64,000 nucleotides of DNA. It comes from Candidatus Aenigmatarchaeota archaeon (GTDB lineage Archaea; Aenigmatarchaeota; Aenigmatarchaeia; CG10238-14; SpSt-28). Positions 1 to 41,543 of this stretch are shown one piece after another. Position 1 is the stretch's first letter. Each line of letters begins with the position of its first letter. Made by a program: the position numbers and the translations under genes. Where the stretch lies: NCBI GenBank assembly GCA_038997165.1, contig JAWBAK010000001.1, positions 61,926-125,925 on the forward strand, given 5' to 3'. The notes under the pieces were generated by a model that saw nothing but the letters and a program-made list of their open reading frames with translations, ran no database searches and had not been told where the DNA came from.

Positions 1-1
1 A

Positions 2-3000
2 CTAAATTTCCCATTATTTTTTGCTTGTGGTAATTTTTCAACTAAGTTACAAGTTTTTAATAAAGGTAATTTACCTGCTTATAACTTTAGAATAAATGAA
101 ACAAAAAGTGATATACTTAAAACTCATCCTGGAGATTTAATTTTCTACGGTTTTAATCCTTCTAATCCTTATTTAGAACAATCAAAACTAATTAGCTGGG
201 ATGGAGGAATAAATTTCATAGCTACAGGTAAAGATAATGCAATAAACTTTACTTATTCAATTTTTGTACCATATCAAACTAATGGTACTTTTAGTTTTCA
301 AGCCTTAGCACTTAATAATACCTTTAGCTTTTTCGACGAAGAATATATAATTTCAATTTCTTGTGGAGCTTCTTTAAGCATAGACCAAATTAGAATAAGA
401 AAAGGAGAATATCCAGAACCAACTATATATGTTAACGATATTTTTAACATTTCGGCAAACATTTATAATGATGGTCCAGGAAATGCAAGTAATGTAATAG
501 TTTGGATTAATTATACAAATGTAACTCAAATAAGAGGATTAGAAAATTTAAAAATTTATAATTCTAATGGAGAAGAAAGCAATATTATTTATTTAGGAAA
601 TATTTTACCAAAGGAAACAAAAATTGCCTTTAATGACTATTATTTTACAGTAAATACTTCAGGAGTTTCTCCAGGAATAATAAGATTTTGTATTAATGCA
701 AACGCTACTGAAAATTCTACAATAGTTTCTTCTTGCAGAGATATTACAATAAATGCTCCACCAGCATTAATTGAATTAGAAAATCCCATTGCTATTTCAA
801 AAGAAACAGGCTCATCTTTTGGCTCTTGGAGCTTTAATTTTACTTTTAACGTTTCTGTAAGAGTTTCGAATTCAGAAAATGATGTTCAAATATGTGCATG
901 GTTTAGCAAAACTGGAATGGAACCATTTAAACTAATTGGTTGTGATATTTATCCTGCTCCAGGAAATAATATCGGAAGTTGGAGAAATTATTCTTTTGAA
1001 TATTCTCCAAGCTGTGAAGATATTGGTAATCCTGTATTTATTAAGTTTAATGCAACAAACTTTGCAGGATCTTCTAATTCTACAACATTACCATTTACTA
1101 TCACTAAAAGTAAAATAGTATTCGATGAAATTTTAGGAAATAATACAGAAACTAGAAGAGGGAAAATGCCTACAATTCTTGGTGTTAGAGTAAAAGATAT
1201 AAATGGAACTTATATTTCTAACTTACCATTAAGATTTTACGTAAGTTTAAACGAAATTGTTTTTGATGCAGGTAATACAGTTTATACAAATGAAAGTGGT
1301 TATGCAAACTATAACTTTTTAGCAGTTTGTACTCCAAAATACTTAGTTGGATATCAAAAATGGAAAGCTGAATTAAAAGATAACGAATGTTATTTTGATA
1401 ATTCTACAGAAAATTATTTCGATTTAAGAGTTTTAGTAACTGGAGATATTTTACTATATATAGTTAGGCCAGATGGTAGTACAAACTATACTCAAGAAGA
1501 TACTATTACATTCTTAGGTTATGTAACAGATGATTGTGGAGATCCTTTAACGGCAAGCGTTATATTTTTTGCAAATCATAGCATAGAAAGCTTTGAATGT
1601 TCAGATGTAACTCAAGTAGGTTCTAATGCATATACTTGCGATTGGCATACAGAAATTACTACACCAATGGGTTGGTATAATGTTTCTATGTATGTAGAAA
1701 AAGAGTTTCATTATTCGAATTGGAGTATAAAAGCTAAAGATCCAGGACTATTCTATTTAGAACCTATTTATAAATTAGAAGATCCACAAGCATATCCAAT
1801 AAGAGAAGGATGGGGATATAAAAACTGGAATTTTAGTGTATTTGCATCTAGTGGAGATAGTGAAAATGAGTTTGACGTAAATATATATTTAGGAGATTTG
1901 TGGCCACCAGCAAAGCCTTGTGAAGAGTGTATAAATATTACTCCAAAAACATGCTTTAATTGTTATAAGCAATTGGTTGTATTTTTAAGAAATTTCACTG
2001 CATATGAAATAGGTACTTGGTACTATAGATTTTCCTTAGGACCAACATCAACTACTCAAGTTAAATATGTAATAGTTGAAAAAGATGACACAACAATGGA
2101 ATATGTTAGTGGAAATAATTCTATAGTAATAAGAAATTCTCAACCAGCATTACTTTCTGTTAGAGTTTTTGACTTAGATGCAAATACTTATGAATTAAAT
2201 CCGCCTGCATTAGTTACTTTTAAATTATACGATGAAAAATATCCAAATGGATATAAGGTTATTGGAAGTGTTTATACAAATTCTTCTGGATATGCAAATC
2301 TATTGCTAAACATAACAGAATGTACTGGTTGGCTTGAAGGAATTCAAAAATGGAGTGCAGAAATAGATGATAATGATAACTATTACAAAAAATCTTCCAT
2401 AGGAAACTTTACAATAGAAATTCAATTACCAGGATGCCAGCCGCAAGTATATATTTATTCGATAGAATTACCAAAAGAAGCATTTCAATATAAAAATTTC
2501 ACAATAGTAACATATGTTACTTCTTGGGTAGGAGATGCTGAAGGTGTTTATATAAATATTACTTTACCAGATGGTTGGTATACTGATGAGCAAACTAAAT
2601 ATTTGGGAAAAATATATGCTAACGAATTCAAAAAAATTTATTGGAATGTTTATGCTAGTACATTTGGAGAGGGAAAAGCAATTTTCTATATAAACTCAAG
2701 TAATGCTGGTTATAAAAGATTGGAAAGTAATAATATTGTCGTTTATAAATTTTCTCAATCAACAATAAACTCGATAATTAATATTAATAGTAATGATTTT
2801 GAAATTTTAGAATTTGATTGCGAAACTGGTAACTATAGAATTGCAAACTTAACAATAAAAATTTCAGAGAATTCAAATAATTCAACTCTAAAAATTGAAT
2901 CTTTTAACTCTTCTAACTGGATAAAAATTGAAAATAATTTAGAAGTTATTAGCAATAGCTTCTATTTTATTCCAATATTAGCTAATCAAATTTCAAGCAA

Positions 3001-6000
3001 TTCTGATGGAAAATGTTTAGTAAAAATAACAAATGTTGGAGATAAAAATGTAATTATAGAAAGTGCAACCCTTACTTCTTACTATAATGAAACTTTAAAA
3101 ATAGATGGTATAAAAGTTTTAGTTAATAATTTTGAAGTAGAAAGCATAGATAAAACAGAAAGTTCATTTAATATTTCTGTTAGAATAGGAAATTCCTTAG
3201 ATATAAATAAAGATGGTAATTTAACTTTAAAGATTTTGAAAGATGGAAAGGAAATTTATTCGAATTATAAAGAATTTACAATAAATGCAAATAGCTTTAC
3301 TTTTATTAATTTTACTGATATTCAAACAAGCAATTGGGAAGAAGGAATTTATGAAATAATTGCAATACTCAATTCTTCAAACGAAATTAAATTATTAAAA
3401 AGAGAAATAGTTTTTAGTGAAATAAAAATCGATATAACTTCTCCAAAATATCAATGTAATTCTTCAACAGAAAAAATTTATTTAGAAATTTATCAGCCAT
3501 TAGAAGATTATATTTCTTATAACATTTCTTTACAAATTCCAAATAATTGGGATTATAATCCTAAATACATATACTTAGAGCCAAAAGGTAAAGGATTTTA
3601 TTTTGCCGAATTTAATTTAACAGCATTTTCTGAAATTGAAGAAGATTATCAAATAATAATTGTAATTAATTACACTTACGCAAACAATACAAAAAGTTTA
3701 ATTAAACCTATAAACATAAAAGTTTCTCCAAACATTCCAATTTTAGAAATTATAAGAGAATTACCAAGTTTAGTTTCCACATCAATTGTTTTTAAGCCAA
3801 GAATAGTTATTCATAACAAAGGTTGTGGGATTGCTAATAATGTAACTATTAAAGAATATATTTCAGCCGGTTGGATAGGGGCAAACCCAAGCATTGCAAA
3901 GAACGAATATGCTAATGATCCAGAAGTTTCTGATAAAGATGTTGATTTAATTTATTCTGAAACGGACTTAATAAATAATATACTAACTTGGCAATTAAGC
4001 GATATTAAGCCAAATAAATATGCTGTACTAACATATCAAATAAAAGCTCCTCCAACATTATTTACAGCTGGTTACTTAAAGTATAATATAAGCTGGAATA
4101 ATGAATATTATATTGAAGAAAAAATACCATCAAAAGTTTATACATATAGATATCCAGAAGAATCTCATTTAGAATTTGATTTAATTGCTATTCAAACCTT
4201 AGAATATCCATGGCCAGAAGTAAGAAGCATTCAAGTTAATAGAGAATATAACTTTACTTTAAAAGTTACAAATATTGGAGATATAAATACTAATAATGAT
4301 TGGACTATTAAGCTTTATATTCCAAAAGAATGCGAAGTTATTAATGTAGAAAATGGAATATGGAATGAAAGTGAAAGAAAAATAGTTTGGAGTTTACCAA
4401 ATATTTCAACTTATCAAACATCATATTTTAACTTTACTTTGAAATGTAATGAAGAAAAACAATATGTTTTAATTGCTGAAGGAATAAGAGATACTAGAAG
4501 TAAAGTAAGCTTTGAAAATTCTACATCAATTTATTGCGAATCTTATTCAAAACCTGCATATTGTTATTCTAAATTAGATTATATCTTAGCAAAACCAACA
4601 AATGCTAGATATGAAAAATTATCCAATATAACTATTGAGTTTTTGAATAAATATTCTGGAAATAATTTAACAATTGGAAATTCTTACATAAAAATTTTTG
4701 ACGATTTGCTTAATGAGCATATAATATGGCAAGACTATTCTTTCGAAGAGAAAAATGAAATAAAAACAAAGCAGCTAATAATTTATGAAAATCAAGAAAA
4801 TTTTGTTAGTAATATAAAAACTTTTGAAATTAGCTCATATTCTGATGCAACAGAAAATACTTATACTAACATTTCAATACTTAAAATTTATTATACTTGG
4901 GATTTAGGAAAATTGTTTAATGAAACTCAAAACCTATTTATAAAATCTAAGGTTTATGATTATACACCTCTATTCAGAAACGCAAAGCTCTATATTAATG
5001 GTAACGATTCTATAAAAGTTGGAGGCTGGGGAGAAAAATTTGAATTTAGTGTAGAGGTTAGAGATAGATTTGGAAGAGATGTTATAGTTAGAATGTATCA
5101 TAGAAAAGTAGGTGGTGAGTGGAGTTTAGTAGATGAAAAAGTTTGCTATTCTTGCTTAGAATGGACTCAATTTAATTTTAGCTATGATTACGATTATACA
5201 GATATATCAAATTGGGAATTCAAATTTGAAGGAATAAATTCAGATGGTATTAGCGAATATTATGGATTTGTATATACTGTTGAAAAAGATGATGTTGAAT
5301 TAACACCAATTCAACCACAATGGAACGAAACTGTTTTAAGAGCTTATGGATATAACTTTACGATTTACGCTTTCGATATTGATAATAAAACTATTCCATA
5401 TGTTTTGGAAGATTATAAAGCTTTTGTTGCCTTAGGTCAATATGGAAATAACTTAACTTATAAAATATATACATTATCTCCATCAATTAATGAAAGTGGC
5501 TACATAATTTTAAAAGTTACTAATACAGAGTTTTGTAATCCAGCAAACAACTATTATTTAGGTCAAAACTACTGGTTTGGTGGAATTCAAGGATCTGCAT
5601 ATTATAAAGATGTTAATACAAGAATTCCACCATATAATGCATTACCATATGTATTAATAGGAAGCTTATATAATAACATAATTTATCCAATTAATGTTAA
5701 CTTTAGTTTCGAATTAGATACAATTACTTTAAGAGGAGTTGTTTACGACGATTGTGGAAATATAAGAGCTGATGAAGATATGTATGTATATTTCAATTTA
5801 ACTAATGGAGATTATAATTATCAATGCATAGCTACAAGAGTTGGAAATGAATTCCAATGTACATTTAATCCAAGAAGTTTAAATGCACCCTTAGGTTGGT
5901 ATAACATATCTATGTATTCTTCAAAGCCATTACATACAGATGGTATTTATAGTGTAAATAATGCATTCTTCTTAGCAAGCATACCAAAAATAATTAATAT

Positions 6001-15000: not shown

Positions 15001-18000
15001 TAATTTCACTGTAGAGAAAAATGATGTAAGAATAGAATTAGTTGAAGGAAATAATTCAACTGTATGGCGAAATAATACAGAATCTGTAACTTTAAAAGTT
15101 AGAATTTACGATTTAGATCAAAAGATATATGTATCTTCTCCTTCAGCAAAAACATATTTCTTTATAACTTATGATGGAAATGTTTTTGATGAAGGAAGAG
15201 AAACTTATACAGATAATGAAGGTTATTCATACATTGATTTCGATCCAGATTGTAGATATAAGACAGGTGTTCAAAAATGGGTTGTGAAGATTATTAACGA
15301 TACTTATTATAAAGATTCTTCATCTCAAAACTTCACATTAAACATTTACTCTACTTTAATTCCGAATGTAACATTTCCAGATGGACATGCATTTTTAGTT
15401 GGGGAATTAGTACCTATAAATGTTAGCCTAAGAGATGAATGTGAATATGTAAATAAAGCAAGTGTAACAATAAGAGTTAGATATTTAGCAACTACATATA
15501 CTTGCACTCCAGTAAATAATATTGATAATGGAATTTATAACTGTGTTTGGGACTCTAGTGGAAAAGCATATGGAGGTTATGATGTAATAGCTATTGCTTC
15601 GAAATCTTTCTACGCATCTAATTCAACGACAAAACCTCTAGCATTTTATTTAGCATCAATACCACAGCTTTCTAACGCATCTGTTAATCCATTAGTTGGT
15701 GGATGGGGAGAAACGTTTACATTTAGCGTAAGATTAACTGATTTAGATAGAAATCAAAATAATGTTACCTTATGGAAAAGTTATGATAATCAAAGTTGGA
15801 TTTATGTAACAAGTAAATTAGTTACACCAACATATGCAGGATATTTAGTAAGTTTTGTTGTAACGTTTGATTGCGAAGATTTATTAAATGGTCCTCTAGT
15901 ATATTTCAAGTTTTCATCAAAAGATCAATTCGGTTATTATAATGAAAGTGGAATAATTAATGTTACATTTGAGCAAAACGATGCTTCATTAAGTATTATA
16001 GAATATAATTCAAGCGTTAGAAGGCTAGAAAACAATATATCGTATTTCTTACTTAGAGTTTACGATAGCGATAGAAAAGTTTATCCAAATAATACAGAAG
16101 TCACTTTATATATAACTGAAAATGGAAATGACTATACAATAGAAATTATTAATCAAACATATTTAGGAAATGTATCTTTCTATTACGATCCTACATGCTC
16201 TTCAAACGTAGGAATTCAAAAATGGTATGCGAAAATCACAGATGTTTGTTATAAAAATGTTAATACAACAGAAAGAGCTTTAACTGTTATTGGACAATTA
16301 TATATAGACATCTTGAATCCAAAAAACAATCAAATCTTAAACAGAAATACTACTTATTACTTTAATTCTAGCGTATATGATGAATGTAATTTAATAATCG
16401 ATAATGCAAATGTTAGCTGGTTCTTTGGAAATACAAGAATTGGTACTACGTATAACGTTACATATACCATTCCATTTAACTATAAGTTAGGATTAGAAAA
16501 TGTAAAAGCAAACACTTCTAGGATTTATTACGATCCAAATGAAAAGGTTATAAATGTTTATGTTTATGGATTTGCAGATTTAACAGAAATTTATCCACAA
16601 ACAAATTCAAAATTCTTAGCTGGAGAAATAGTAAATTTAGTTTGCAGAGTTATGGATAAAAATCTAAATGTACCAATCGAAGGATATACAGTATATTTCT
16701 ATAGAAACGATACATTAATAGGAAGCTCGCTAACAAATTCTAGTGGATATGCAACATTCAGCTGGTCAACAGTTAACGAATTAGCTGGATTTGTAGAGAT
16801 GAAATGTAGGATAACTAACGACGATATTAAATATTATAATGCATCTATTTCAGAAATTTCTTCTTTAATAAGAATTAGAAGACCTATAACAATAAGAGAG
16901 ATTTCTGTTACACCAAATGAAATTTATAGAAATGATACTTTTTCACCAAACATAGCTACTATAAAAGTGAGAACATATGATTCAATAATAGCGGCAACAA
17001 GTAATGCAATAGTTTATTTCTATAACGAAACAGATTTAATTGGAAACTGCACACCAGATTCTTTTGGCTATTGTTCGATAACATATAATCCACCCAACGA
17101 AACTAATGTTGGAATTAAATACATTTACATAAACGCAACACCAACGATAGAAGGTAGAGAAAACTCAGATACATATATCACATCTTTTATAGCAAAAGGT
17201 AAATTATATATTCAAATATTAGAACCTTCGAACTCTAGCATATTTGCAAAATCTTCAACAGTTAATATAAGAACTTATGTAACTAGTGAAAATGGCGAAA
17301 ATATTCCTGCATTATATCCAAATTCAAGAGTAAATATTACAAACTCTTCGAGCATAATTGGTTTCGCTTATCCAACAGGGGAGGCAAATATTTATGCTGG
17401 AAGCTTTAACTTATTAGATCAAAAAACTGGATGGTTAAATATATCTACTATAATAAACATTCCATATTATGATTCTGCAGTAGATTCTATATGGATATTA
17501 GTAACTGGTTTAGCTGGAGTAGAATTTACATTTCCAAGCAATAACCAAGAAATAACTTATCCTTCAACAATATATCCAACTTGCTTAGTTAAAGATTTAG
17601 ATAGTGAAATCGGAATAGAGAATTATCCTGTAGAATTCTATTATAAAACGTCAAGTAGCGATTGGATATATGTATCTACAGAAATAACGAATTCTAGTGG
17701 ATTAGCAAACATATCTTTTACAACCCCATCAAAGGGAGAGTTTTACTTTAAATGTGTTATTAGCGATAATGCAACTTTGGTATATTCTGCTATATATAAT
17801 GAAAGCATTGTTAGAATTTTAGTTAAAGATCTTACCCCACCAGAAATTTTAGAAACTTCAATAAGTCCGACATATGATATAGAGGCAAATAGAGATTTTG
17901 TAAATATTTCTGCAGTAGTATCTGATAACATAGGAATTAGTGAAGTCTGGGCAATGATTGGCTTGCCAAATGGTAGTTCAGTAAGAGTAAATATGAATAA

Positions 18001-21000
18001 AATATCTGGAAATTTAACATATGGATTTTATTCAGCCATTTATATTCCTCCAATAGGCGGAGAATATAATGTAACAGTATTTGCAAAAGATTTGCCACCA
18101 GAAGCAAATGTTAACTCATCTTTTGCAGGAATTTTCTACGTATTTGGAAAAACTAATCTTGAGCTTAACGTATTTCCAGAAAACATTATTGCAGATGGTA
18201 TTACAATATATAATGGCTATCCTTTTGAAATAATAATAAATGTTAGTAATTTAGGTCCCGCGACAGCATACGATTTAAACATAACACTATTTGATGACAG
18301 TGGAAGAATTGAATATTCAACTAATATTATTACTATTTCTAACATAAGCAGGTATATAAACATCTCGCAAATGATTATGGCAAGAGTAAAAGAAGCTACA
18401 CCAGCACAAACCATTAATATATTCGTTAACCTAAGCTGGAGAAATCCAGATTTAACATATAACTATACTGTTAAAAGAATATTCGTAATAGTTGCAGAAA
18501 ATCCAAAATTAGAAATTAAGCCAGAATATATCAATGAAGTTGTTGAACACGACACAATAAAGATTATAGGTAGTGTAAACATTACAAATATTGGAAACGT
18601 GCCAATTACCGAAATTTTACTCTCTACAGATTTAAACACTCCGTTTTATATGTATTGTTTGAATTGTTCCATATCACTATTTCCAACATATCAAGGATTC
18701 TTAGCAATGGGTCAAAGCTTTATTAGTGAAATTACTGTTAGTATTCCTGCGGGCCAAGATCCTGGAAGTTATTGGAGTAGGATATTAGTTTCTTCAAAAG
18801 AGGCAGCCACTGTTTATTCAATAATAAATATAACTGTACCTATAAATAATTCTTGGATTATTGATAAAGAGATTAGTGGAATAATTCTAGCTCCATTAGG
18901 AACTAAAAAAGAAATTGACAAAATTAACTTTTCGAATATTGGAAATGTTAATGTAACTATCTCTATATACTTAAGTGGAAGAGGTGCCGAATTAGTAAGA
19001 GTAGAAAATAGAAGTTCATTTTCTTTTGTATTACCAAAACAAAAAGAAAGATTAGTTTCATTTAGTTACGATATACCAAAAACTAAAAATGAAGGACTTT
19101 ATGATGTAAGAGTAGTAATGGTAAGTACAGATGGTTATCCGAATCTAAGAGAATTTATATTTACGTTAAATGTAACAGATATTCCACCAATAATAGAGAA
19201 TGTAACATTTTCAAAAACAGATTTTGAAATAAACGAAACTATAAATGTAACTGCAAAAATATATGATAACATTGAATTAGATAAAGCTTGGATAAACATA
19301 TCTTATCCAAACAATACTTATGAAATTAAATTGCTGAAGAAATTGCAAGACGATATATTCTACGAAAATATTTCATCTAGAATTGCTGGAGAAATTAAGA
19401 TATCAATCTGTGCAAACGATACTAAAGGTTTAACCAGTTGTACAGAAGAGTTTATAATTAGAGCTCATTCAAAAACTATTTTAGATGTTCTATCAGAAAA
19501 AATAGTTTTTGAAAACGTTACATTAAGAAATTCTCAAACAAAAACAGTTATACTAAACTTAACTAACTTAGGTTTTGCAAGAGCATTTAACGTTAGTATA
19601 AAAGGTGAAGATGAAATTTTTGATATTACTTTAACTAATGTATCATTAATTTTGGCTAGAGAAATAATTCCAGTAATTGTTAATATAACAGCATTAAATG
19701 GAACCTATAGTGGAAATTATTCTGCAAAAATAAATATAACTTGGATTAATTTAGATGGAAGCATTGAAAGTAAAATATCTTTAATTCCAATAGAAGTTTT
19801 GCCAGTTCATTTGATAGAAATAGAAAATAAAACAGAATATATTAAAAACAATGAAGAAAGAATTGTTAATATATCTTTATCTGCTGTAGGAAATGTTAAC
19901 GAAACTAATATAACATTAATTTGTTCTGCAAACTGCGAATTGTTTAAAATAGATCTAAACGAAACTATTGATAATATAGCACTTGGAGAAACCATAGAAA
20001 TTCCAATAAGAGTTTTTGTTCCTTCTGATTTAGAAAGTGGGGAATATATGGTTGAGTTAAAGGCTTATAATGAATTTACTTCAGCAACCGGATATCTAAA
20101 AATAATCGTTCCTATAAACATTTCTTGGGAAATTTATCCAATTTATGAAGAAATAGAAAGCGTACAGGGAGAAGAATTATTTAGAAATATAACAATAAGA
20201 AATACAGGAAATTTAAGATTGTTATTGAATTTGTCTTCAATAGCAATAAACGGATCTAACTTTATATATTTTGAAAATGATAAAAACTTTACTACAATAA
20301 GTTTAAGAGTTGGTGAAACAAAAATTATTCCAATAAAAATAGTTGTTCCTATAGTTTACGATTATTCCATTTTTGAAAACAGAATAGTTTCGCTTAACTT
20401 TACAACTCAATCTGGCTTAATAACTAAGAATTCTACATTTATACTTAAAATACATCCATTATTTGTAAAAATAATCGAACCTACAGAATCGAATCCACTA
20501 AAAAGAGTTGTTGCTGGTGATACTATTTATGCTAAGGTAAATGTAAGTTATGGAAATGAAACTTTAACATCTAATGTTAGTTTTCAAATATTTTTATCGA
20601 ATGAAACATATAGGCATGAAATAGAAAATTTCACAGCTCAATTCTTAGTAATTGAAAAATTATGGTTATTAACATTCATAGCTCCTAATTTAACAGAAGG
20701 AATAGGATATGATTTAATCGTTAATGCTACATATTTATTAAAAAATGTTTCAAAAATAGATGTAGAACCAAAATCAATAATTTATCTTGACACTATTCCG
20801 CCAGAAATTGAAATAATTATTCCGGCTAGAATTAGAGTTAATACATCAGCTATATTCTGGTTTAATATAACAGATTTAGGTGGAGTAGAAAGTGCTAATG
20901 CTATAATAATTAAACCAGATAGCAATATTAGTGAATATAATTTAACGTTTGTAAAAAGAATAGGAAGTACATATATATACAAATTAGAGTTTAATGAAAC

Positions 21001-23683
21001 AGATCAAATTGGAAGATATGTAATAAATGTAATTGCTTATGATAAAAGTGGTAACAAAGCTGAAAAATCTGCAATTTTTGATGTTAGGCCGCTAATTTTC
21101 TTTAGTGGTATTGCAAAAGATGAAGAAAGCATAGATTATGTTCCATTAAACGTTACTTTCGAATTATATCCAGCAGGAAGGTATGAAATGTTATACAGAA
21201 TAGTTCCTGACGAAGAAGGATATTATAATGAAACAATAGAAGCGATGTATTACGATATTGTATATAAATTCTTTAATGAAAGCTTAGTAATCTCTAATAT
21301 TGGATTGTTTGATGATGTATTTAATCCGATAGTATTAGGAATACCGAGAGAAGTTATTTTACCAAGAGAAGCAATTAAAGGTTATGTTTTAGATAGTATT
21401 CTTAAATCATCCTCTACCTTAATATTCGATATAAGCAATTTAGATGCTAGAAAGCATGATTTAAGATTATTAGGAATTTATCATTGCGCAAACTGGACAA
21501 GATATATTGGCTGCAATTCAACTTGGATTAGACTAAACTCTATAGTTTCTTTACAAAGCTTAAAAGTTTATGCAACAAACATAAGCGAAATTAAGGGTGC
21601 GTATATTTTAGCTCAATATGTTTGTGGAAATGGAATATGTGAAGATAGATTTGGTGAAAGTAATGCAATTTGTCCATTAGATTGTCCAGCTGCTGGAGCT
21701 CCAGGAATTCCAGCTCCAGGAATTGGAGCACCTGGAATAGGGGCTGGAGTAGGAATTCCTGCAGTTCCAGCTGCTCCTGGAGTAGGAATAGGAGTTGGTG
21801 CTGGTGCACCAACAATAACCATTCCACCCTATGAAATATTTACTAAGGAAATTAGTGTAACATTAAAGCCAAAAGAACATATAATTGTAAGTGTTGATAT
21901 AGGAAACAATAGAAATAAAGATATTAAAGTAAAGTTTAAGCCAGAAGGATTAATTTGGGAATTTGTTCAATTAGAAGCAAACGAAATTGAAATTAAAGCA
22001 AGTCAAAGAGGCACGATAAAAATGAAAATATTTGCTCCAGAAGAAAAAATGCCAGGAATCTATACAGGAGATTTGGTTGTTTATATTGAAAATGAAACAT
22101 ATAGAATTCCAGTAACAATTAAAATAGAGTTACCACCAGAACCTTTGCTTGACGTAATAATAAATGTATTAAGAAAAACAATAGAACCCAACGAAACTTT
22201 AAAGGTATTTGTTAGAGTAGTCAATATGGGTCAAACAGAAAAAGTAGAAGATATTGTTTTAACTTACATAATAAAAGATTTATTAACTGGAGAATTATAC
22301 AATGTTTATAAAGAAACTATAGCTGTAGAGACAGCAACTTCATTTACAAGAGAAATTACCTTACCAGAAGGAATTAAATTAGATAGAAAATATCTAATAG
22401 AGGTTAATGCAAGTTATTGGTATGGAAGAAAATATGCATATGCAGCAGATACTTTTGAAGTAGTTTCATTACCCATACCTTTAAAAATACTTAGAAGCCT
22501 ATTACTAAATCCAGTAACTTATATTGTTACTTTTGGAATTGCACCAACCGCTTATTTAGCTCAAAAAGCACTACAAGCCTATAAATTAAGAAAATTAAAA
22601 GAAAAGAGATATGCATTACCAATAGATTTTGATAAATTACCAAAAGCAGGTCCTAATAGTATTGAAGTTGGAAAAATTGCAGAAACGGATGTAAAGGCAT
22701 ATTTTGATATGAAGCAATTAATAATGCATACTATTGCAGCTGGTGGTACTGGAAGTGGTAAAACTATAAGTGCTATGGTTGTTGCAGAAGAATTATTAAA
22801 AAGAAATATTCCAGTAATAGTTTTTGATCCTACAGCACAATGGACTGGCTTCATAAAACCAAATAAAGATCCTACTATGCAAGCCTTTTATAAACAATTT
22901 GGATTAAAACCAGAAGATGCTAGAGGATTCAAAACAAATATAATTGTTGTAGAAGATGTGGATATGCCACTAGATATTAAAAAGTATATGAATCCAGGAG
23001 AAATAACTGTTTTTGTATTAAATAGATTAAAAGCAGATGAATTAGATAAATTTATTAGAAGAAGTATTGAAGCTGTTTTTGAAATGAAACCACCAGAATC
23101 GAAAGAACTCAAACTATTATTAATATACGATGAAATTCATAGAACTTTACCAAAATATGGAGGTAAAGGTGGTTATATAGCTATTGAAAGGGGAGCAAGA
23201 GAATTTAGAAAATGGGGAATTGGATTATTCTTAATATCTCAAGTATTGTTAGACTTTAAAGGAGCAATTAGAGCAAATGTTGCTACAGAAATTCAATTAA
23301 GAACAAAATATGAAGGAGATATAAATAGAGTAAAGCAAAAATATGGAACAGATTATGCAAGCAAAGTTACTAAATTGACAATTGGTACTGGAATTGTTCA
23401 AAATCCTGAATATAACAATGGTAAGCCTTGGATAATTCAATTTAGACCTATTTTACATTCAACTTTCGCATTATCAAAAGAAGAGCTAGATACTTATATG
23501 AATTTAAGAAAGAAGTTGGAAGCATTTGAAAAAGAAGTTGAAAATCTTAAGGCAAGAGGAATTGATACTTTCGATATAGAAAATGAAATAAAACTTGCTT
23601 GGGATAGATTGAAGCAAGGAATGTTTAGAATGGTTGAAACATATATTGAAAGTATTGAAACAAATCTCAAACGTTATAAATAA
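2..23683 (+). CDS. Giant surface (adhesin/S-layer-like) protein, 5'-partial because the ORF continues upstream of the window; single C-terminal TM helix and cytoplasmic HerA/FtsK-superfamily P-loop ATPase domain
   Basis: The frame containing the ATG at 917 has no stop codon from nt 2 to 917. Codons 2-916 were translated by hand and give a protein-like sequence with the CARDB-like motif NIYNDGPGNASNVIV, so the true start lies upstream of the window; the ORF track's 917 is only the first in-frame ATG. The ORF is uninterrupted for 23.7 kb in an AT-rich genome and ends at TAA 23681-23683. N-x-S/T sequons are extremely dense. Domain order is described in the sub-features. Confidence 0.85.
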   Translation, partial: LNFPLFFACGNFSTKLQVFNKGNLPAYNFRINETKSDILKTHPGDLIFYGFNPSNPYLEQSKLISWDGGINFIATGKDNAINFTYSIFVPYQTNGTFSFQALALNNTFSFFDEEYIISISCGASLSIDQIRIRKGEYPEPTIYVNDIFNISANIYNDGPGNASNVIVWINYTNVTQIRGLENLKIYNSNGEESNIIYLGNILPKETKIAFNDYYFTVNTSGVSPGIIRFCINANATENSTIVSSCRDITINAPPALIELENPIAISKETGSSFGSWSFNFTFNVSVRVSNSENDVQICAWFSKTGMEPFKLIGCDIYPAPGNNIGSWRNYSFEYSPSCEDIGNPVFIKFNATNFAGSSNSTTLPFTITKSKIVFDEILGNNTETRRGKMPTILGVRVKDINGTYISNLPLRFYVSLNEIVFDAGNTVYTNESGYANYNFLAVCTPKYLVGYQKWKAELKDNECYFDNSTENYFDLRVLVTGDILLYIVRPDGSTNYTQEDTITFLGYVTDDCGDPLTASVIFFANHSIESFECSDVTQVGSNAYTCDWHTEITTPMGWYNVSMYVEKEFHYSNWSIKAKDPGLFYLEPIYKLEDPQAYPIREGWGYKNWNFSVFASSGDSENEFDVNIYLGDLWPPAKPCEECINITPKTCFNCYKQLVVFLRNFTAYEIGTWYYRFSLGPTSTTQVKYVIVEKDDTTMEYVSGNNSIVIRNSQPALLSVRVFDLDANTYELNPPALVTFKLYDEKYPNGYKVIGSVYTNSSGYANLLLNITECTGWLEGIQKWSAEIDDNDNYYKKSSIGNFTIEIQLPGCQPQVYIYSIELPKEAFQYKNFTIVTYVTSWVGDAEGVYINITLPDGWYTDEQTKYLGKIYANEFKKIYWNVYASTFGEGKAIFYINSSNAGYKRLESNNIVVYKFSQSTINSIININSNDFEILEFDCETGNYRIANLTIKISENSNNSTLKIESFNSSNWIKIENNLEVISNSFYFIPILANQISSNSDGKCLVKITNVGDKNVIIESATLTSYYNETLKIDGIKVLVNNFEVESIDKTESSFNISVRIGNSLDINKDGNLTLKILKDGKEIYSNYKEFTINANSFTFINFTDIQTSNWEEGIYEIIAILNSSNEIKLLKREIVFSEIKIDITSPKYQCNSSTEKIYLEIYQPLEDYISYNISLQIPNNWDYNPKYIYLEPKGKGFYFAEFNLTAFSEIEEDYQIIIVINYTYANNTKSLIKPINIKVSPNIPILEIIRELPSLVSTSIVFKPRIVIHNKGCGIANNVTIKEYISAGWIGANPSIAKNEYANDPEVSDKDVDLIYSETDLINNILTWQLSDIKPNKYAVLTYQIKAPPTLFTAGYLKYNISWNNEYYIEEKIPSKVYTYRYPEESHLEFDLIAIQTLEYPWPEVRSIQVNREYNFTLKVTNIGDINTNNDWTIKLYIPKECEVINVENGIWNESERKIVWSLPNISTYQTSYFNFTLKCNEEKQYVLIAEGIRDTRSKVSFENSTSIYCESYSKPAYCYSKLDYILAKPTNARYEKLSNITIEFLNKYSGNNLTIGNSYIKIFDDLLNEHIIWQDYSFEEKNEIKTKQLIIYENQENFVSNIKTFEISSYSDATENTYTNISILKIYYTWDLGKLFNETQNLFIKSKVYDYTPLFRNAKLYINGNDSIKVGGWGEKFEFSVEVRDRFGRDVIVRMYHRKVGGEWSLVDEKVCYSCLEWTQFNFSYDYDYTDISNWEFKFEGINSDGISEYYGFVYTVEKDDVELTPIQPQWNETVLRAYGYNFTIYAFDIDNKTIPYVLEDYKAFVALGQYGNNLTYKIYTLSPSINESGYIILKVTNTEFCNPANNYYLGQNYWFGGIQGSAYYKDVNTRIPPYNALPYVLIGSLYNNIIYPINVNFSFELDTITLRGVVYDDCGNIRADEDMYVYFNLTNGDYNYQCIATRVGNEFQCTFNPRSLNAPLGWYNISMYSSKPLHTDGIYSVNNAFFLASIPKIINISINPFGGPWGLSPFNFSAYIIDEDGNFVNITHYLRKVPEQYFVAYIDNCTNCNYYLTSFLRNFVCDYENIEVGEWRYKIETKDEAGFSNTSQEISFTIEKEPINISLFESVPLINRSNVPNSKAYNLSVTIFDTILNRNVTEIPFVYLKLEGPATFTYEMEKDETQEKYYYEFLPGCSYPVGEYKWYSYVLNDYCYQNARSENYTINIYGSLSVNIISPTDYQIIPEGQSVTIRSNIIDDCGVSITNANVYYILRNERTQEEFRCPESGFANYDGTSYVCNFNTSGKPGGNYTIIAYASRNYYWDSLAIKENAFFLVTPVRIINVTMNYEHDGSWGEIHNFTALIDHYNDVIVCLLEKPIDAQEYQVTECKYVENPSGGKKVTFNRRYTCSNFVRSQFWNYKINATEPGVPSSYSESQEYQHMLQKNDLSLIIYYNDSEAKRYGDQRARLIVYAYDLDQKQAAYVSAYNSPNIKFNVYNGSSFVFVGANSTNSSGYSTLFFKPDCSFDVGIKEWYAYTEADACYKNVISDRSNITIVGLLNPYLVSPINEEYTRYAELYINLSAIVKDECNLITFENATVTFIAKSVAFGSEYLCSDVTYSNGYYNCSLNATLIEEGWYNVNVTASNVLYYDDYYYLQTNSFKIIHSLVPPVLSNEYAYPEQDGGWGERWYFRVNVSDLNGDDVNIYLWISRDRSNWELVNQTICYNCGYERTIELSYKGFTCEDYLNRPIYFKFNATDAYNSTDRNPIALYLDKNDLRIEYYSGNESKIIRNVGGILQARIYDLDFGDYADSQVALYVTTDRNNYKLVAINNSLNSIATLFFNPTCEFDVGLQYWKIGSYNDACYKNVNSSDFNLYVIGNIDANITYPKGDKFLRGSNVTLNISIFDECSENIPLENTKINITMISNRDKSIRYCTEIIELGNGLYSCTFNSSNFTPNYYNVTLNISKELYTNKTKTFSNVFWIETNPILFNLRAIPNVLGWGETLTIKVNFTDEDLDTHTINVYLIKSDYSRVRTRNILNVQGINVEASTQFTFTSADIGDWFVIVNVTDDFGIAEINTSITIEKDDTIIEYISGNNSIVHRIHNTTTFELRAIDIDNPSNNIYYQPAGFWVTSDYVNYIYIGTVYTGNNGYFNITFDPDCRFETGIQKWKGGLLENPNWKTSNSSEYFVIIVSDLSGNIIQPDGNILLRGVDSLNIRATVSDECKYVNGADVYFVVGNENINITCDNVINDNLGNYTCSLSSSTLEILPYGWNNITMFARKDFYENELVITKQNAFYLADKPKIEDVYVTSATWRWGTVFEFVGKLYDLDPDNKTVYLWISRDGSNWRLINQTTYYGPTPPGGVDIKLSFIPTCNDVGNWYFKFNVTDTSGYSSETFGYQFEILKRPAVISAISGLNKIIQREGSVSTTLRIKAIDAIDGANINNAKIKFITINKTGHEVTYETWTNQSGIASYIFDPDCSYGANKTYWKAILYNNSCYEDTVSPNFDIYIYGKLYNNLVAPSQGSTFPSRTTFNISYYITSDCSDEGLIENANAEIKVYDPLNQEIICTPIIEENGYYNCTFDTTGKRAGVYSITLNSTKQYYFGSYTNYPNWFSIYNSPPTYSNISVSPSIAPWTSILNFSVYVSDADNDVVRCSLEIKKGYSYIEVATMEINGNGLCSFLISDFSCDDIGTNYFRFSLSDGYNDIVYTEEQSFELTKSPVVLNLISGNGTSVRRNIASTNLRISVFDLVKNSLVGTSILPEAYVKFNITFDSLNYINLDEVSTTSGYAEVMFSPDCSFSAGTQYWYAYISENDVCYEFNQTNNFEVYVIGSLNPSIIEPTNLFKVYKGNNVSIRANIQDDCNENVSVDFIQINPISRITGQMFNCIVSEENIGIYNCSFETVDKPAGAYDIRVNVSKQYHVSAIYTESNAFFIETYPSLTNPSVTPIVEGWGKTRTFSITASDEDRDALYVCLYYRPKGSEDWSLASCRTKPSGIASQTLTFSRTFSCDNLLGQESIEYEFFFNVTDDDNNIAESEIKNFTLERDDISVSLAESYVEYNRSSTEKASLIISIRDLDANSYATRAVNATLYVTRIPGTTNYFIDNVYINRNPVLGNITFYFPQQNKCLYKVGPQKWYVSINSSCYKPANSPIGTLNITSLPLNSTLIYPIGEYFPQGYNIPITVEVYDDCEKVDGASLSIEVINPNNETIECYPVSNLGNGGYRCSFSDTYLLGSYTIKTQANKQYYPEGYINEFPNAFFITSAPFIDSTEVYASRTSSEEGGWGDTWFFKIRVYDEDQSFIEFEKLNISLYIDFGNGYEYISSQICEAPECASLKEFVFTHTFDCSKIGDNKKFKFIVRDFFNNTVESAEGYFNILPDEPQITILRKPTRINREGNFADMFNISVIDVDRGVPANATLTLFITTDSSNFNFYVNLNSVNGIATYSFDPDCRFSAGIQYFKVSTNDSCYKLKTSDIDEFEIIGSLQNYIIYPYRNSDILIEFGKIENITLNVKDECENDIENANVNLNAIWPNNYIENIPVYEENSGIYNATWNLSRKIGGYYSFVFNSSKEYYNSNSTLFLNWIYLNNTPPIIENISVNPLVGGWGETFTFSADVFDIQRDDVVCKLYVYTGKNTWLYKGSVTIKDGVGKCIINVSDFDCSDINVTSLNMFKFEISDVNNVFNTTEIFAPAIGKNDVEIYYVFGNNSFVNRAYYNTTLLSLRIFDKIKNTFVGSNVRGFVKVTKDGSNYGEEIINYTNSSGYLNVYFDPSGDYEVGIQKWLGGVLNDNCYLDKNSEEYYLTILGEIALSYFGIDREDARYLKPKDDITITIALQDDRGSYINDANVNITLIDEFNNKYICPISNLGGGTYQCSISTSVLAARWYNVSILAKKEYHLDLNVTFSNVFFIETEPKVYNISAISEENSNIGGWGETWKFVAIFEDEDLDRNEIWIQIKPENSENWYTVNSTIISGINKTTIELIVKDPGLLQQYLGIWNAQFYSIDNRGYISYSEIINFTVEKNDVRIELVEGNNSTVWRNNTESVTLKVRIYDLDQKIYVSSPSAKTYFFITYDGNVFDEGRETYTDNEGYSYIDFDPDCRYKTGVQKWVVKIINDTYYKDSSSQNFTLNIYSTLIPNVTFPDGHAFLVGELVPINVSLRDECEYVNKASVTIRVRYLATTYTCTPVNNIDNGIYNCVWDSSGKAYGGYDVIAIASKSFYASNSTTKPLAFYLASIPQLSNASVNPLVGGWGETFTFSVRLTDLDRNQNNVTLWKSYDNQSWIYVTSKLVTPTYAGYLVSFVVTFDCEDLLNGPLVYFKFSSKDQFGYYNESGIINVTFEQNDASLSIIEYNSSVRRLENNISYFLLRVYDSDRKVYPNNTEVTLYITENGNDYTIEIINQTYLGNVSFYYDPTCSSNVGIQKWYAKITDVCYKNVNTTERALTVIGQLYIDILNPKNNQILNRNTTYYFNSSVYDECNLIIDNANVSWFFGNTRIGTTYNVTYTIPFNYKLGLENVKANTSRIYYDPNEKVINVYVYGFADLTEIYPQTNSKFLAGEIVNLVCRVMDKNLNVPIEGYTVYFYRNDTLIGSSLTNSSGYATFSWSTVNELAGFVEMKCRITNDDIKYYNASISEISSLIRIRRPITIREISVTPNEIYRNDTFSPNIATIKVRTYDSIIAATSNAIVYFYNETDLIGNCTPDSFGYCSITYNPPNETNVGIKYIYINATPTIEGRENSDTYITSFIAKGKLYIQILEPSNSSIFAKSSTVNIRTYVTSENGENIPALYPNSRVNITNSSSIIGFAYPTGEANIYAGSFNLLDQKTGWLNISTIINIPYYDSAVDSIWILVTGLAGVEFTFPSNNQEITYPSTIYPTCLVKDLDSEIGIENYPVEFYYKTSSSDWIYVSTEITNSSGLANISFTTPSKGEFYFKCVISDNATLVYSAIYNESIVRILVKDLTPPEILETSISPTYDIEANRDFVNISAVVSDNIGISEVWAMIGLPNGSSVRVNMNKISGNLTYGFYSAIYIPPIGGEYNVTVFAKDLPPEANVNSSFAGIFYVFGKTNLELNVFPENIIADGITIYNGYPFEIIINVSNLGPATAYDLNITLFDDSGRIEYSTNIITISNISRYINISQMIMARVKEATPAQTINIFVNLSWRNPDLTYNYTVKRIFVIVAENPKLEIKPEYINEVVEHDTIKIIGSVNITNIGNVPITEILLSTDLNTPFYMYCLNCSISLFPTYQGFLAMGQSFISEITVSIPAGQDPGSYWSRILVSSKEAATVYSIINITVPINNSWIIDKEISGIILAPLGTKKEIDKINFSNIGNVNVTISIYLSGRGAELVRVENRSSFSFVLPKQKERLVSFSYDIPKTKNEGLYDVRVVMVSTDGYPNLREFIFTLNVTDIPPIIENVTFSKTDFEINETINVTAKIYDNIELDKAWINISYPNNTYEIKLLKKLQDDIFYENISSRIAGEIKISICANDTKGLTSCTEEFIIRAHSKTILDVLSEKIVFENVTLRNSQTKTVILNLTNLGFARAFNVSIKGEDEIFDITLTNVSLILAREIIPVIVNITALNGTYSGNYSAKINITWINLDGSIESKISLIPIEVLPVHLIEIENKTEYIKNNEERIVNISLSAVGNVNETNITLICSANCELFKIDLNETIDNIALGETIEIPIRVFVPSDLESGEYMVELKAYNEFTSATGYLKIIVPINISWEIYPIYEEIESVQGEELFRNITIRNTGNLRLLLNLSSIAINGSNFIYFENDKNFTTISLRVGETKIIPIKIVVPIVYDYSIFENRIVSLNFTTQSGLITKNSTFILKIHPLFVKIIEPTESNPLKRVVAGDTIYAKVNVSYGNETLTSNVSFQIFLSNETYRHEIENFTAQFLVIEKLWLLTFIAPNLTEGIGYDLIVNATYLLKNVSKIDVEPKSIIYLDTIPPEIEIIIPARIRVNTSAIFWFNITDLGGVESANAIIIKPDSNISEYNLTFVKRIGSTYIYKLEFNETDQIGRYVINVIAYDKSGNKAEKSAIFDVRPLIFFSGIAKDEESIDYVPLNVTFELYPAGRYEMLYRIVPDEEGYYNETIEAMYYDIVYKFFNESLVISNIGLFDDVFNPIVLGIPREVILPREAIKGYVLDSILKSSSTLIFDISNLDARKHDLRLLGIYHCANWTRYIGCNSTWIRLNSIVSLQSLKVYATNISEIKGAYILAQYVCGNGICEDRFGESNAICPLDCPAAGAPGIPAPGIGAPGIGAGVGIPAVPAAPGVGIGVGAGAPTITIPPYEIFTKEISVTLKPKEHIIVSVDIGNNRNKDIKVKFKPEGLIWEFVQLEANEIEIKASQRGTIKMKIFAPEEKMPGIYTGDLVVYIENETYRIPVTIKIELPPEPLLDVIINVLRKTIEPNETLKVFVRVVNMGQTEKVEDIVLTYIIKDLLTGELYNVYKETIAVETATSFTREITLPEGIKLDRKYLIEVNASYWYGRKYAYAADTFEVVSLPIPLKILRSLLLNPVTYIVTFGIAPTAYLAQKALQAYKLRKLKEKRYALPIDFDKLPKAGPNSIEVGKIAETDVKAYFDMKQLIMHTIAAGGTGSGKTISAMVVAEELLKRNIPVIVFDPTAQWTGFIKPNKDPTMQAFYKQFGLKPEDARGFKTNIIVVEDVDMPLDIKKYMNPGEITVFVLNRLKADELDKFIRRSIEAVFEMKPPESKELKLLLIYDEIHRTLPKYGGKGGYIAIERGAREFRKWGIGLFLISQVLLDFKGAIRANVATEIQLRTKYEGDINRVKQKYGTDYASKVTKLTIGTGIVQNPEYNNGKPWIIQFRPILHSTFALSKEELDTYMNLRKKLEAFEKEVENLKARGIDTFDIENEIKLAWDRLKQGMFRMVETYIESIETNLKRYK
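820..16300 (+). repeat. Tandem array of at least 14 copies of a ~320-aa (944-996 nt period) four-part module inside the giant CDS; a ~2.2 kb insertion of different N-rich/CARDB-like domains (about 2700-4950) splits copy 1 from copy 2
   Basis: The G-W-G-E/Y core recurs at nt ~820 (GSWSF variant), 1808, 5021, 6017, 6998, 7991, 8945, 9889, 10850, 11804, 12800, 13766, 14741 and 15698. Each module carries in order: (a) xGGWGE(T/K)(F/W)xF...D(E/L)D; (b) SGNNSIVxRN...(R/K)(I/V)(Y/F)DLD; (c) GYAxxxFDPDC(R/S)FxxG(I/T)QKWxA...CYK; (d) DDCG/DEC...NxGxYxC(S/T)F...GxY. Confidence 0.7.
16300..21600 (+). other. Stalk region of giant protein: about 3-4 bacterial-Ig-like (Big/invasin-like) domains (about 16550-17800), then about 8-10 CARDB-like beta-sandwich domains with NxGxxxA/T motifs
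   Basis: Ig-like examples: YTVYFYRNDTLIGSSLTNSSGYATFSWS and VEFYYKTSSSDWIYVSTEITNSSGLANISFT. CARDB-type motifs: VSNLGPATAYDLNITL, ITNIGNVPITEI, FSNIGNVNVTISIY, LTNLGFARAFNVSI, SAVGNVNETNIT, RNTGNLRLLLNL. Motif-level assignment only. Confidence 0.45.
21623..21685 (+). other. Small 4-Cys module CGNGICEDRFGESNAICPLDC inside giant protein
   Basis: Read directly: C-G-N-G-x-C-E ... C-P-x-D-C with four Cys in 21 residues, immediately before the Gly/Pro linker. It is the only Cys cluster in this part of the protein. Confidence 0.5.
21686..21808 (+). repeat. Elastin-like Gly/Pro/Ala/Val/Ile low-complexity linker (41 aa); local GC island inside the giant CDS
   Basis: Translates to PAAGAPGIPAPGIGAPGIGAGVGIPAVPAAPGVGIGVGAGAP. 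The nucleotides are GC-rich (cca gga / gct cca repeats) in an otherwise AT-rich gene. Both minus-strand frames stay open here by composition, which explains the spurious ORFs at 21591-21827. Confidence 0.85.
22499..22561 (+). other. Single transmembrane helix of giant protein (LLLNPVTYIVTFGIAPTAYLA) followed by a K/R-rich stretch
   Basis: A 21-residue hydrophobic segment followed by QKALQAYKLRKLKEKR (positive-inside rule), which gives an N-out/C-in type I topology. About 7,400 aa are extracellular and about 370 aa cytoplasmic. Confidence 0.7.
22650..23440 (+). other. Cytoplasmic HerA/VirB4/FtsK-superfamily P-loop ATPase domain (DUF87-like) at C-terminus of giant protein
   Basis: Walker A IAAGGTGSGKT (22736-22765). 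Walker B LLLIYDEIH (23114-23140), a DEAH-like DEIH. The downstream block EFRKWGIGLFLISQVLLDF...ANVATEIQLRT matches the HerA pattern (EGRKFGVGLxLxTQRPS...vlsqcnt.i.lRl). It ends in a short coiled coil. No NurA-like partner lies nearby. Confidence 0.75.
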
Positions 23684-23685
23684 TT

Positions 23686-31454: not shown

Positions 31455-31682
31455 ATGGTTTACAATATAAGTTTAACATTAATATTAGCTATATTACTAA
31501 TTAGTATCTCTTTTTTATTTTTATTAATATATAAAAAAAGAAAGAAGAGTATAGATGAATTAATACAAGAAATTGAAAATAATCTATTAGATATTAAAAA
31601 AAATCTAGAAAATATTCGTTTAATTTTAAAAAAAGAGCAAAAAGAAATAAAGAGAAAACATGCCAGAAAGAGGAGCATTTGA
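31455..31682 (+). CDS. 75-aa single-TM protein with a basic/coiled-coil tail
   Basis: MVYNISLTLILAILLISISFLFLLIYKKRKK... The hydrophobic N-terminus is followed by KKRKK. It overlaps the next ORF start by 23 nt. Short, so the call is uncertain. Confidence 0.45.
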   Translation: MVYNISLTLILAILLISISFLFLLIYKKRKKSIDELIQEIENNLLDIKKNLENIRLILKKEQKEIKRKHARKRSI

Positions 31683-34340: not shown

Positions 34341-34345
34341 TAAAA

Positions 34346-34957: not shown

Positions 34958-34962
34958 TTATT

Positions 34963-41514: not shown

Positions 41515-41543
41515 AAAAAAATAAAATAAAGGAAAAAATATTA

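Follow-up and report, generated by a model that had tools for sequence, protein, structure and literature searches.

The 64,000-nucleotide (nt) stretch of DNA analysed here (the window; positions 61,926 to 125,925 of contig JAWBAK010000001.1, GenBank assembly GCA_038997165.1, Candidatus Aenigmatarchaeota archaeon) raises the question of what is encoded by the giant open reading frame (ORF) which crosses its 5' edge and occupies nt 2..23683 of the + strand, with 7,893 codons and a TAA stop. Very likely, the product is a giant surface protein of the SPEARE type, anchored in the membrane of a DPANN archaeon and equipped with a putatively active motor. The DPANN are tiny, mostly host-dependent archaeal lineages. 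The protein belongs to a kind that has been described before, of which it is a new and very large member, from another lineage and with another repeat make-up. Genes and parts of the giant ORF described below lie on the + strand unless otherwise stated; regions are given by position only.

SPEARE proteins, as described by Hamm et al. (2019; PMC6642349), are mostly extracytoplasmic and have a C-terminal transmembrane (TM) helix and a conserved cytoplasmic region, and proteomics showed that the SPEARE protein is made. The last ~600 amino acids (aa) of the window protein align with the C-terminus of BNXNv_0298 of Ca. Nanohalovita (34% identity over 601 columns, E 4e-113, BLASTP), with the alignment spanning the beta-sandwiches, TM helix, ATPase and tail up to the last residues. 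The giant immunoglobulin (Ig)-like extracytoplasmic part, the single C-terminal TM helix, the homologous cytoplasmic region and the coiled-coil tail of SPEARE proteins are all found in the window protein. Its topology is type-I-like, with the giant chain outside, one TM helix, and the ATPase and coiled coil in the cytoplasm. The TM helix and HerA-like ATPase at the C-terminus, which define the family, the DPANN origin, the SPEARE literature and the downstream operon had all been overlooked in the initial annotation of this DNA.

The C-terminal module (aa 7,208-7,893) was modelled by AlphaFold2 (predicted local distance difference test score, pLDDT, 92.5) as two beta-sandwiches, a long helix, a RecA-like core and a helical tail. 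It begins with a Cys-rich knot, CGNGICEDRFGESNAICPLDC (21623..21685), which follows the consensus C..C....C....G.....C...C of 64 members and has counterparts in P0013, P0045, P0226 and P0182. Next to it lie a flexible Gly/Ala/Pro-rich linker of 42 residues (21686..21811), which includes a 15-nt tandem repeat (21,694-21,738) and is matched by a Gly/Pro-rich linker at the same site in relatives, and two membrane-proximal beta-sandwiches (21830..22462; aa 7,277-7,375 and 7,383-7,487), with WxLIP and RbmA as structural neighbours. The core of the TM helix, SLLLNPVTYIVTFGIAPTAYLA (22496..22561), is followed by the positive-inside segment KLRKLKEKR; it coincides with model helix residues 223-265 (aa 7,492-7,534), has a hydropathy of 1.48 and has a clear TM segment as its counterpart at the same site in P0052, P0116 and BNXNv_0298. 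The cytoplasmic part consists of an FtsK-HerA-superfamily P-loop ATPase (22658..23443) and a helical/coiled-coil tail (23477..23677; model helices 557-582, 588-602 and 606-623), the latter conserved in the family and in BNXNv_0298. The ATPase contains a Walker A motif AGGTGSGKT (22,739-22,765), the motif DPTAQW (22,820-22,852), a Walker B motif LLLIYDEIHR (23,114-23,143), the motif AREFRKWG (23,195-23,224) and an SQ sensor (23,228-23,242). The Walker A, DPTxQW, Walker B, R-E-F-R-K-W-G and SQ motifs are invariant across 64 relatives, and from its motifs the ATPase is predicted to be catalytically intact. The RecA-like core, both Walker motifs, an arginine-bearing motif and the fold place the motor in the FtsK-HerA superfamily, and structure comparison puts it slightly nearer to HerA than to VirB4, both being close. 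Membership of the NCBIfam CedD family was rejected, with a score of 41 bits vs a cut-off of 600 and a match restricted to the P-loop region.

The remainder of the protein is built of beta-sandwiches. A beta-rich segment (2..805) without a Pfam match, which shares 92-97% aa identity with the relatives L003, L004 and P0121, precedes super-repeat copy 1 (aa 269-571) and a partial copy 2 (aa 683-799) of a ~320-aa three-domain unit (together 806..2398), which were found by phmmer with the unit at aa 4,570-4,895 against the protein itself. Non-repeated ectodomain with weak Ig-like matches follows (2399..5014), including a DUF11 domain at aa 1,409-1,493 (nt 4,226-4,480; Pfam), and then twelve contiguous three-domain super-repeats (5015..16411; aa 1,672-5,470). 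Chunked BLAST and phmmer were used to map the repeats, the whole-protein self-BLAST having returned the identity match only. The ectodomain continues with Big_1, Big_7, MG2, NPCBM_assoc and Big_3-type Ig-like domains (16412..21601; aa 5,471-7,200; Pfam), with aa 6,051-6,754 distantly similar to a neighbouring 1,908-aa protein. Conserved Cys pairs recur in each super-repeat, together with the motifs GGWGE, TNSSGYA..F.PDC..G.QKW, DDC, G.YNC and GWYN. The unit was modelled as three beta-sandwiches (pLDDT 91.2), and its Foldseek neighbours are the macroglobulin (MG) domains of C3, C5 and alpha-2-macroglobulin, Ig/FN3 arrays and the adhesin extenders 4p99 and 6xi3.

Pfam detects Ig-/MG-like families only (Big_7, Big_1, DUF11, MG2, NPCBM_assoc and Big_3) in the ectodomain (aa 1 to ~7,490). 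A claim of the initial annotation that the 5' part of the frame encodes a CARDB-like beta-sandwich stands with respect to the fold, given these matches and the three beta-sandwiches of the modelled repeat unit, and is not borne out with respect to the family, in that Pfam made no CARDB call (E<=0.1) at the motif in question, NIYNDGPGNASNVIV (aa 153-167, nt 458-502). For this region 'CARDB-like' stays a visual resemblance. The ectodomain contains 283 N-x-S/T sequons, vs 108 +/- 9 in composition-matched shuffles, and 120 cysteines, with none of either in the last 367 residues, and this composition fits a chain that is extracellular, N-glycosylated and disulfide-bonded and whose tail lies in the cytoplasm. 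Over 7,490 residues, comprising ~70 beta-sandwich domains and 12-14 super-repeat copies, are thus predicted to be located outside the cell, glycosylated and disulfide-containing. The isoelectric point (pI) of the 7,893-aa part is 4.7.

The open reading frame is confirmed as far as the window extends. The first stop in + frame 2 is the TAA at nt 23,681-23,683, giving 7,893 stop-free codons from nt 2, and the other two + frames contain 2,251 and 1,582 stops. The ORF list starts the gene at the ATG at 917 and ends it at 23,683; the initial annotation had already proposed that the frame continues off the 5' edge, that it could not have arisen by chance and that a module of the tandem family lies near nt ~820. 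All three proposals hold. There is no in-frame stop in nt 2-917, and the first super-repeat copy covers nt 806-1,714. Given the base composition of the window (25.5% GC), stops are expected with a probability of 0.097 per codon, and 7,893 codons without one have a probability of ~10^-349. The 305 codons ahead of the ATG at 917 share 92-97% aa identity with L003, L004 and P0121. Compared with L002, a relative with 98.3% identity, the window differs mainly at synonymous positions, with a ratio of non-synonymous to synonymous substitution rates (dN/dS) of 0.14 overall, 0.17 in nt 2-1,501 and 0.08-0.22 across all of the 1.5-kb blocks tested. Judged from these sequence comparisons, nt 2-916 is coding and under purifying selection.

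The initial annotation further held that the gene is longer than 23.7 kb, with N-terminal domains and a signal peptide upstream. Homologues, rather than the contig of the window itself, support this. In the 397-kb contig L002 the frame remains open for 169 extra nt upstream of the window start, up to the contig end, while P0121, which is 94% identical to window aa 1-104, has 1,042 further N-terminal residues. The orthologous ORF in L003 and L004 (83% DNA identity to the window start) opens at an ATG which lies 1,229-1,231 codons upstream of the point matching window nt 2 and has a GGTGA motif and an in-frame stop ahead of it, and the encoded protein begins with a hydrophobic signal or anchor, MAKKIGQAEVFSALILALIGILGILVF. 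Because of this more distant start, the full-length window protein is probably ~9,120 aa long and its gene ~27.4 kb, as projected from these relatives. The L003/L004 start also contains a possible class III (pilin-type) signal peptide (KKIG|QAEV), with no match to a Pfam pilin N-terminal family there, and a sequence-based Pfam search of the first 1,230 aa of L003 returned neither LamG nor any peptidase or toxin family. When DNA upstream of the window was sought, a scan of a genome collection returned only L002 (98.3%) and the two 83% relatives, and a metagenome scan returned nothing. The full-length giant protein was absent from the protein collection searched, and an exact-protein look-up matched only a Logan contig.

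The region upstream of the window is hypervariable. L003 and L004 share 97-100% DNA identity for 2 kb upstream of the gene and over its first ~1,310 nt, fall suddenly to 34-66% over 2.3 kb at gene nt ~1,330-3,640 (aa ~445-1,215; L003:7640-9950 and L004:5796-8110), and return to 94-100% for the remaining 4.3 kb compared, so that the cassette has sharp edges in DNA identity. A third version of the cassette is found in P0121 and a fourth in the 56 residues of L002 upstream of the window, giving at least four alleles with 14-50% protein identity within flanks that are 90-100% identical. The likely cause of this pattern is the replacement of one cassette allele by another, close to the membrane-distal end of the protein. 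The 3' edge of the cassette is located ~50 nt before the window start, the L002 contig ends ~120 nt inside the cassette, and database homologues of the region are short fragments only. Population heterogeneity at the cassette probably breaks assemblies there, a possible reason for the ORF crossing the window edge. Diversity-generating retroelements act on a short adenine-specific variable region, and such an element was rejected as the source of the cassette, given a divergence which extends over 2.3 kb with 34-66% DNA identity and indels.

A search with the last 693 aa led to a large family, whose members are labelled Aenigmatarchaeota, Woesearchaeota, Altiarchaeota, Nanohaloarchaeota and others. 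When aa 7,490-7,893 were searched exhaustively, 1,150 representatives were retrieved at E<=1e-3, 368 of them at E<=1e-30. The ATPase is situated at or near the C-terminus in the best 150, of which 66 are at least 2,000 aa and 19 at least 4,000 aa long, the longest having 7,665 aa; ectodomains in this ATPase-module family range from ~300 to over 7,600 aa. The three-domain super-repeat of the window protein recurs in the closest giants (P0149, P0152 and P0153), and the more distant P0226 and P0182 have beta-helix and LamG-like modules, the latter recognised by eye. Many complete members are ~725 aa long and consist of a Sec signal peptide, Cys-rich segment, Pro/Gly linker, two beta-sandwiches, TM helix, ATPase and coiled coil, and the window protein can therefore be described as that module with more than 7,200 residues in front.

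Near-identical records conflict in their taxon labels, with P0001 labelled Nanopusillaceae (Nanobdellota) vs Candidatus Aenigmatarchaeota for L002, a hot-spring metagenome-assembled genome, and for MEM5820118.1, encoded on a 549-kb contig, to which the Lhr helicase of the window is identical. No tRNA or Rfam match and no rRNA or ribosomal protein genes were found in the window. A crenarchaeal label, Ignisphaera sp., is attached to the 1,143-aa fragment P0145, which has 61% identity to window aa 1-900 and comes from a 3.4-kb contig. The label is probably a binning error; it might also be a hint of a co-occurring host.

The giant gene heads a tightly packed run of genes that is conserved in other DPANN archaea, coding for a coiled-coil protein, a ~1,900-aa surface protein and a MinD, with a 2-nt gap, a 4-nt overlap and a 33-nt gap separating successive genes. 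The product of the first (23686..24918) is a cytoplasmic coiled-coil protein of 410 aa in which SHOCT-like motifs (G.IS.EEY) occur; in L005, L006 and L007 a homologue is encoded directly 3' of the gene for the ATPase. The 1,908-aa product of the second (24915..30641) has an N-terminal signal or anchor, an MG2/NPCBM_assoc ectodomain, a TM segment at aa 1,819 and a cytoplasmic SHOCT-like tail, with a full-length homologue in L007 and a C-terminal one in L005. The third (30675..31442) codes for a MinD/ParA-type ATPase of 255 aa with an amphipathic C-terminus (Pfam AAA_31, CbiA and ParA), which is conserved in the L005 and L007 clusters. Homologues of all three accompany the ATPase gene in L005 (Aenigmarchaeota) and L007 (a JGI metagenome), and that of the coiled-coil protein also in L006 (Nanohalovita). 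A scan for bacterial-type promoters and terminators was uninformative (61 sites vs 65.6 expected).

Further along, a second MinD/ParA-type ATPase is encoded on the - strand (40789-41514), within 10 kb of the first (30675-31442, + strand). Both have amphipathic basic C-termini, KKSLFGRILEFLFKK and KKPSFLFLKKWLSFI, which resemble the membrane-targeting helices of MinD. The region 31660-38100 (+), after the first MinD gene, codes for cytoplasmic coiled-coil proteins of 633, 218 and 1,045 aa, whose sole matches are to SMC/Rad50-like coiled coils, and a 203-aa protein without matches; this run may serve as a scaffold for a surface apparatus. The gene at 45801-53429 (+) codes for a second very large surface protein (2,542 aa), which has a signal at its N-terminus and beta-propellers of the PQQ/FG-GAP type at aa ~1,680-2,040. 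The regions 38687-45738 and 53433-56624 contain many small to mid-size ORFs whose products have an N-terminal hydrophobic segment and often a C-terminal TM segment, with no family match, and look like an island of membrane-anchored surface proteins.

A working model can be proposed from these features. The ATPase domains would form a ring, as do those of every solved structural neighbour, and would thereby draw several giant chains, with their TM helices, together at a single site in the membrane. The Ig-like stalk of ~70 domains, which is thought of as extended and would span ~250-300 nm if straight (at our own figure of ~4 nm per domain), may reach and bind a host cell, with the membrane-distal N-terminal part setting which host is bound. 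At the contact the motor could drive the ATP-dependent passage of DNA, or of protein as in VirB4, VirD4 and EccC, across the symbiont membrane; alternatively, it may power the assembly or remodelling of the contact. Positioning and scaffolding of the complex would fall to the MinD-type ATPase and the coiled-coil proteins. Far less confidence is attached to any particular cargo of the motor than to the assignment of the protein as such. As a tentative extension, which is possible and no better than that, the module of ATPase, coiled-coil protein, MG2/NPCBM surface protein and MinD might constitute an undescribed, DPANN-wide trans-envelope contact or translocation machine, of which the SPEARE proteins are the giant-ectodomain variants and whose host range in this thermophilic lineage is retargeted by swapping of the 2.3-kb cassette near the membrane-distal end.

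Before such a function is considered, it should be asked whether the single ORF could be an artefact of sequencing or assembly, either through collapsed or mis-joined repeats or through the wrongful fusion of an adhesin gene with a gene for a ~725-aa ATPase. Such an origin is not without precedent in the material, since short-read assemblies of this family are mostly fragmented, with most matches partial and on contigs of 2-7 kb, and since stand-alone ~725-aa ATPase genes exist, one of them, P0116, lying directly 3' of the 8,880-aa giant gene BNXNv_0298 in Ca. Nanohalovita haloferacivicina. Independent assemblies cover window nt 1-12,536 and 18,085-25,304, with nt 12,537-18,084 represented in the window assembly alone. 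Set against this, the junction between ectodomain and ATPase is in frame in three independent assemblies, namely the window, the 7.2-kb Logan contig L001, which is 100% identical to window 18,085-25,304 and spans the junction and the next two genes, and the NCBI fragment P0001 (1,097 aa), which begins near window aa 6,797, runs to the protein end and is 99% identical over the last 693 aa, the part queried. L002 is collinear with window 1-12,536 (12,536 nt) at 98.3% identity with zero indels, and the L003 orthologue keeps a constant offset of 1,225-1,229 residues across ~4,170 aa. The dN/dS values stay within the range given above in each block tested, and dozens of family members fuse ectodomains of several thousand residues to the same C-terminal module. 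Collapsed repeats had been raised as a concern in the initial annotation. The 13 aligned super-repeat copies have protein identities of 22-31%, exact DNA repeats inside the gene reach 47 nt at most and Tandem Repeats Finder reported three trivial arrays only; collapse is therefore not expected, and together with the agreement of L001, L002 and P0001 this divergence makes it unlikely. Taken as a whole, an artefactual origin of the ORF is very improbable. The 47-nt repeat (window 13750-13796 and 15682-15728; encoding VNPLVGGWGETFTFS) is the sole long exact DNA repeat in the gene and is shared by two super-repeat copies that are otherwise ~30% identical. It may represent a small gene-conversion tract.

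A genuine giant protein could also have a more static role, as a structural glycoprotein of the envelope, forming an S-layer-like coat or a tether, with an ATPase that serves the export, insertion or turnover of its own chain and takes no part in host-directed transport. The ectodomain, which consists solely of generic beta-sandwiches with dense glycosylation sequons, would suit such a role, as would the location of the gene in an island of membrane-anchored surface and coiled-coil proteins, and the ~725-aa members, whose two outside beta-sandwiches can hardly reach another cell, still retain the ATPase. The structural neighbours of this ATPase, however, all move DNA or protein substrates, the swapping of a hypervariable distal cassette within DNA that is 97-100% identical is more typical of partner recognition, and a link of the nanohaloarchaeal protein to host interaction has been proposed by its describers (PMC6642349, PMC10266531). 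A coat or tether is accordingly regarded as improbable. Several observations weigh on the other side, against a SPEARE-type protein engaged with a host. The hydropathy of the TM segment is no more than moderate (1.48) and lower than that of relatives, and support for the segment comes mainly from homology and the model. The LamG, protease and toxin regions of SPEARE proteins were not detected, nor was any other enzymatic domain, in a sequence-based Pfam search of the 7,893 aa (E<=0.01-0.1), and no second ATPase gene follows the giant gene as in the nanohaloarchaeal loci (tblastn across the whole window returned the gene itself only). The predicted N-terminus of the gene in the window genome is projected from homologues, and host adhesion would follow from the domain type and the lifestyle of cultivated DPANN archaea. 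With these points taken into account, a SPEARE-type surface protein with a motor is still considered very likely.

At a predicted ~9,100 aa, the protein would be among the largest archaeal proteins, beside comparators of 9,409 aa in a cultivated nanohaloarchaeon (SVXNc_0300) and 12,127 aa in the EX4484-52 metagenome-assembled genome. The part of the gene in the window by itself corresponds to 4.3% of the 549-kb contig on which the helicase gene of the window is found. With its conserved operon and stand-alone ~725-aa relatives, the family offers a compact system in which to determine what the motor moves, a question at the heart of the way in which DPANN archaea with reduced genomes acquire material from a host. 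The hypervariable distal cassette would provide a handle on host specificity, and it probably also accounts for the fragmentation of the gene in assemblies.

Among known systems, the whole C-terminal module is shared with the stand-alone DPANN proteins annotated as 'DUF87 domain-containing protein' (~725 aa; P0052, P0038 and P0062), at 44-48% identity. These have the same downstream neighbours, namely a coiled-coil protein, a surface-protein domain and MinD, but only a Sec signal peptide precedes the module, where the window protein has more than 7,200 residues. With the HerA translocases (Sulfolobus solfataricus HerA 4d2i, HerA-NurA and Sir2-HerA), which are soluble, have an N-terminal HAS barrel and act with nucleases on DNA ends, the window protein has the ATPase core fold alone in common, and a TM helix and giant ectodomain take the place of the barrel. 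A HerA repair helicase was rejected on this ground and on scores of 23-29 bits against the NCBIfam HerA models, vs cut-offs of 800-970; a scan of the neighbouring window ORFs revealed no NurA, Mre11 or Rad50 adjoining the giant gene.

VirB4, TrwB/VirD4, TcpA, EccC and FtsK/SpoIIIE belong to the same superfamily and are likewise membrane-anchored, yet none is fused to an extracellular adhesin. Membership of a type IV secretion system was rejected: the 22 neighbouring window ORFs scanned include no VirB6/B8/B9/B10-like proteins, pilins or relaxase, nor any further component of type IV or type VII secretion, and the window protein has no Pfam match to VirB4 (PF03135) or TraG/VirD4 (PF02534) at E<=0.01. 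Some relatives carry precomputed, weak PF02534 and PF10412 labels. The arCOG01314 'novel secretion system' with Ig-like membrane proteins (PMC5898192) was also rejected, as it is MoxR/vWA-based and has no FtsK-HerA ATPase. The giant bacterial adhesins, such as the Marinomonas ice-binding adhesin (4p99) and the 'large adhesion protein' extender (6xi3), resemble the window protein in projecting a distal binding region on a long stalk of tandem beta-sandwiches. They differ in being secreted by a type I system, retained in the outer membrane and built of near-identical repeats, in contrast to the 22-31% identity found here, and in having no cytoplasmic motor.

The closest counterparts are the SPEARE proteins of the Nanohaloarchaeota, with sizes of 5,998 aa (NAR1_1133), 8,553 aa (Ca. 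Nanopetramus SG9), 8,880 aa (BNXNv_0298) and 9,409 aa (SVXNc_0300). Hamm et al. (2019) reported at least one laminin-G domain and serine-protease and toxin-like regions in these proteins and called the cytoplasmic region 'type III restriction-like' (PMC6642349), while Reva et al. (2023) disputed the protease and nuclease parts, recognised a signal peptide, ~75 Ig-like domains, a TM helix, a VirB4/TraG-like ATPase and a coiled coil, and proposed a secretion 'straw' (PMC10266531). Where the SPEARE proteins are from halophilic Nanohaloarchaeota, the window lineage is thermophilic, has a GC content of 25% and is labelled Aenigmatarchaeota. The pI of the 7,893-aa part exceeds the 4.0-4.1 of the halophilic proteins, and its ectodomain is made of a different three-domain super-repeat, with no LamG, beta-propeller, protease or toxin-like domains by Pfam. 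The beta-propellers, reported inside the giant protein in nanohaloarchaeal SPEARE, are encoded in the window by the separate gene at 45801-53429. Homologues of the cytoplasmic region were already noted by Hamm et al. (2019) in the Aenigmarchaeota, along with the Woese- and Micrarchaeota and the Altiarchaeales, 'but not in Nanoarchaeota' (PMC6642349), and the window protein extends the SPEARE design from halophiles to hot-spring DPANN archaea with another repeat vocabulary. Common to both are the signal or anchor, ~70-75 Ig-like domains, a single C-terminal TM helix, a cytoplasmic FtsK-HerA-type ATPase and a coiled coil (PMC6642349, PMC10266531, PMC8470020), as well as the homologue of the 410-aa coiled-coil protein that is encoded downstream in Nanohalovita.

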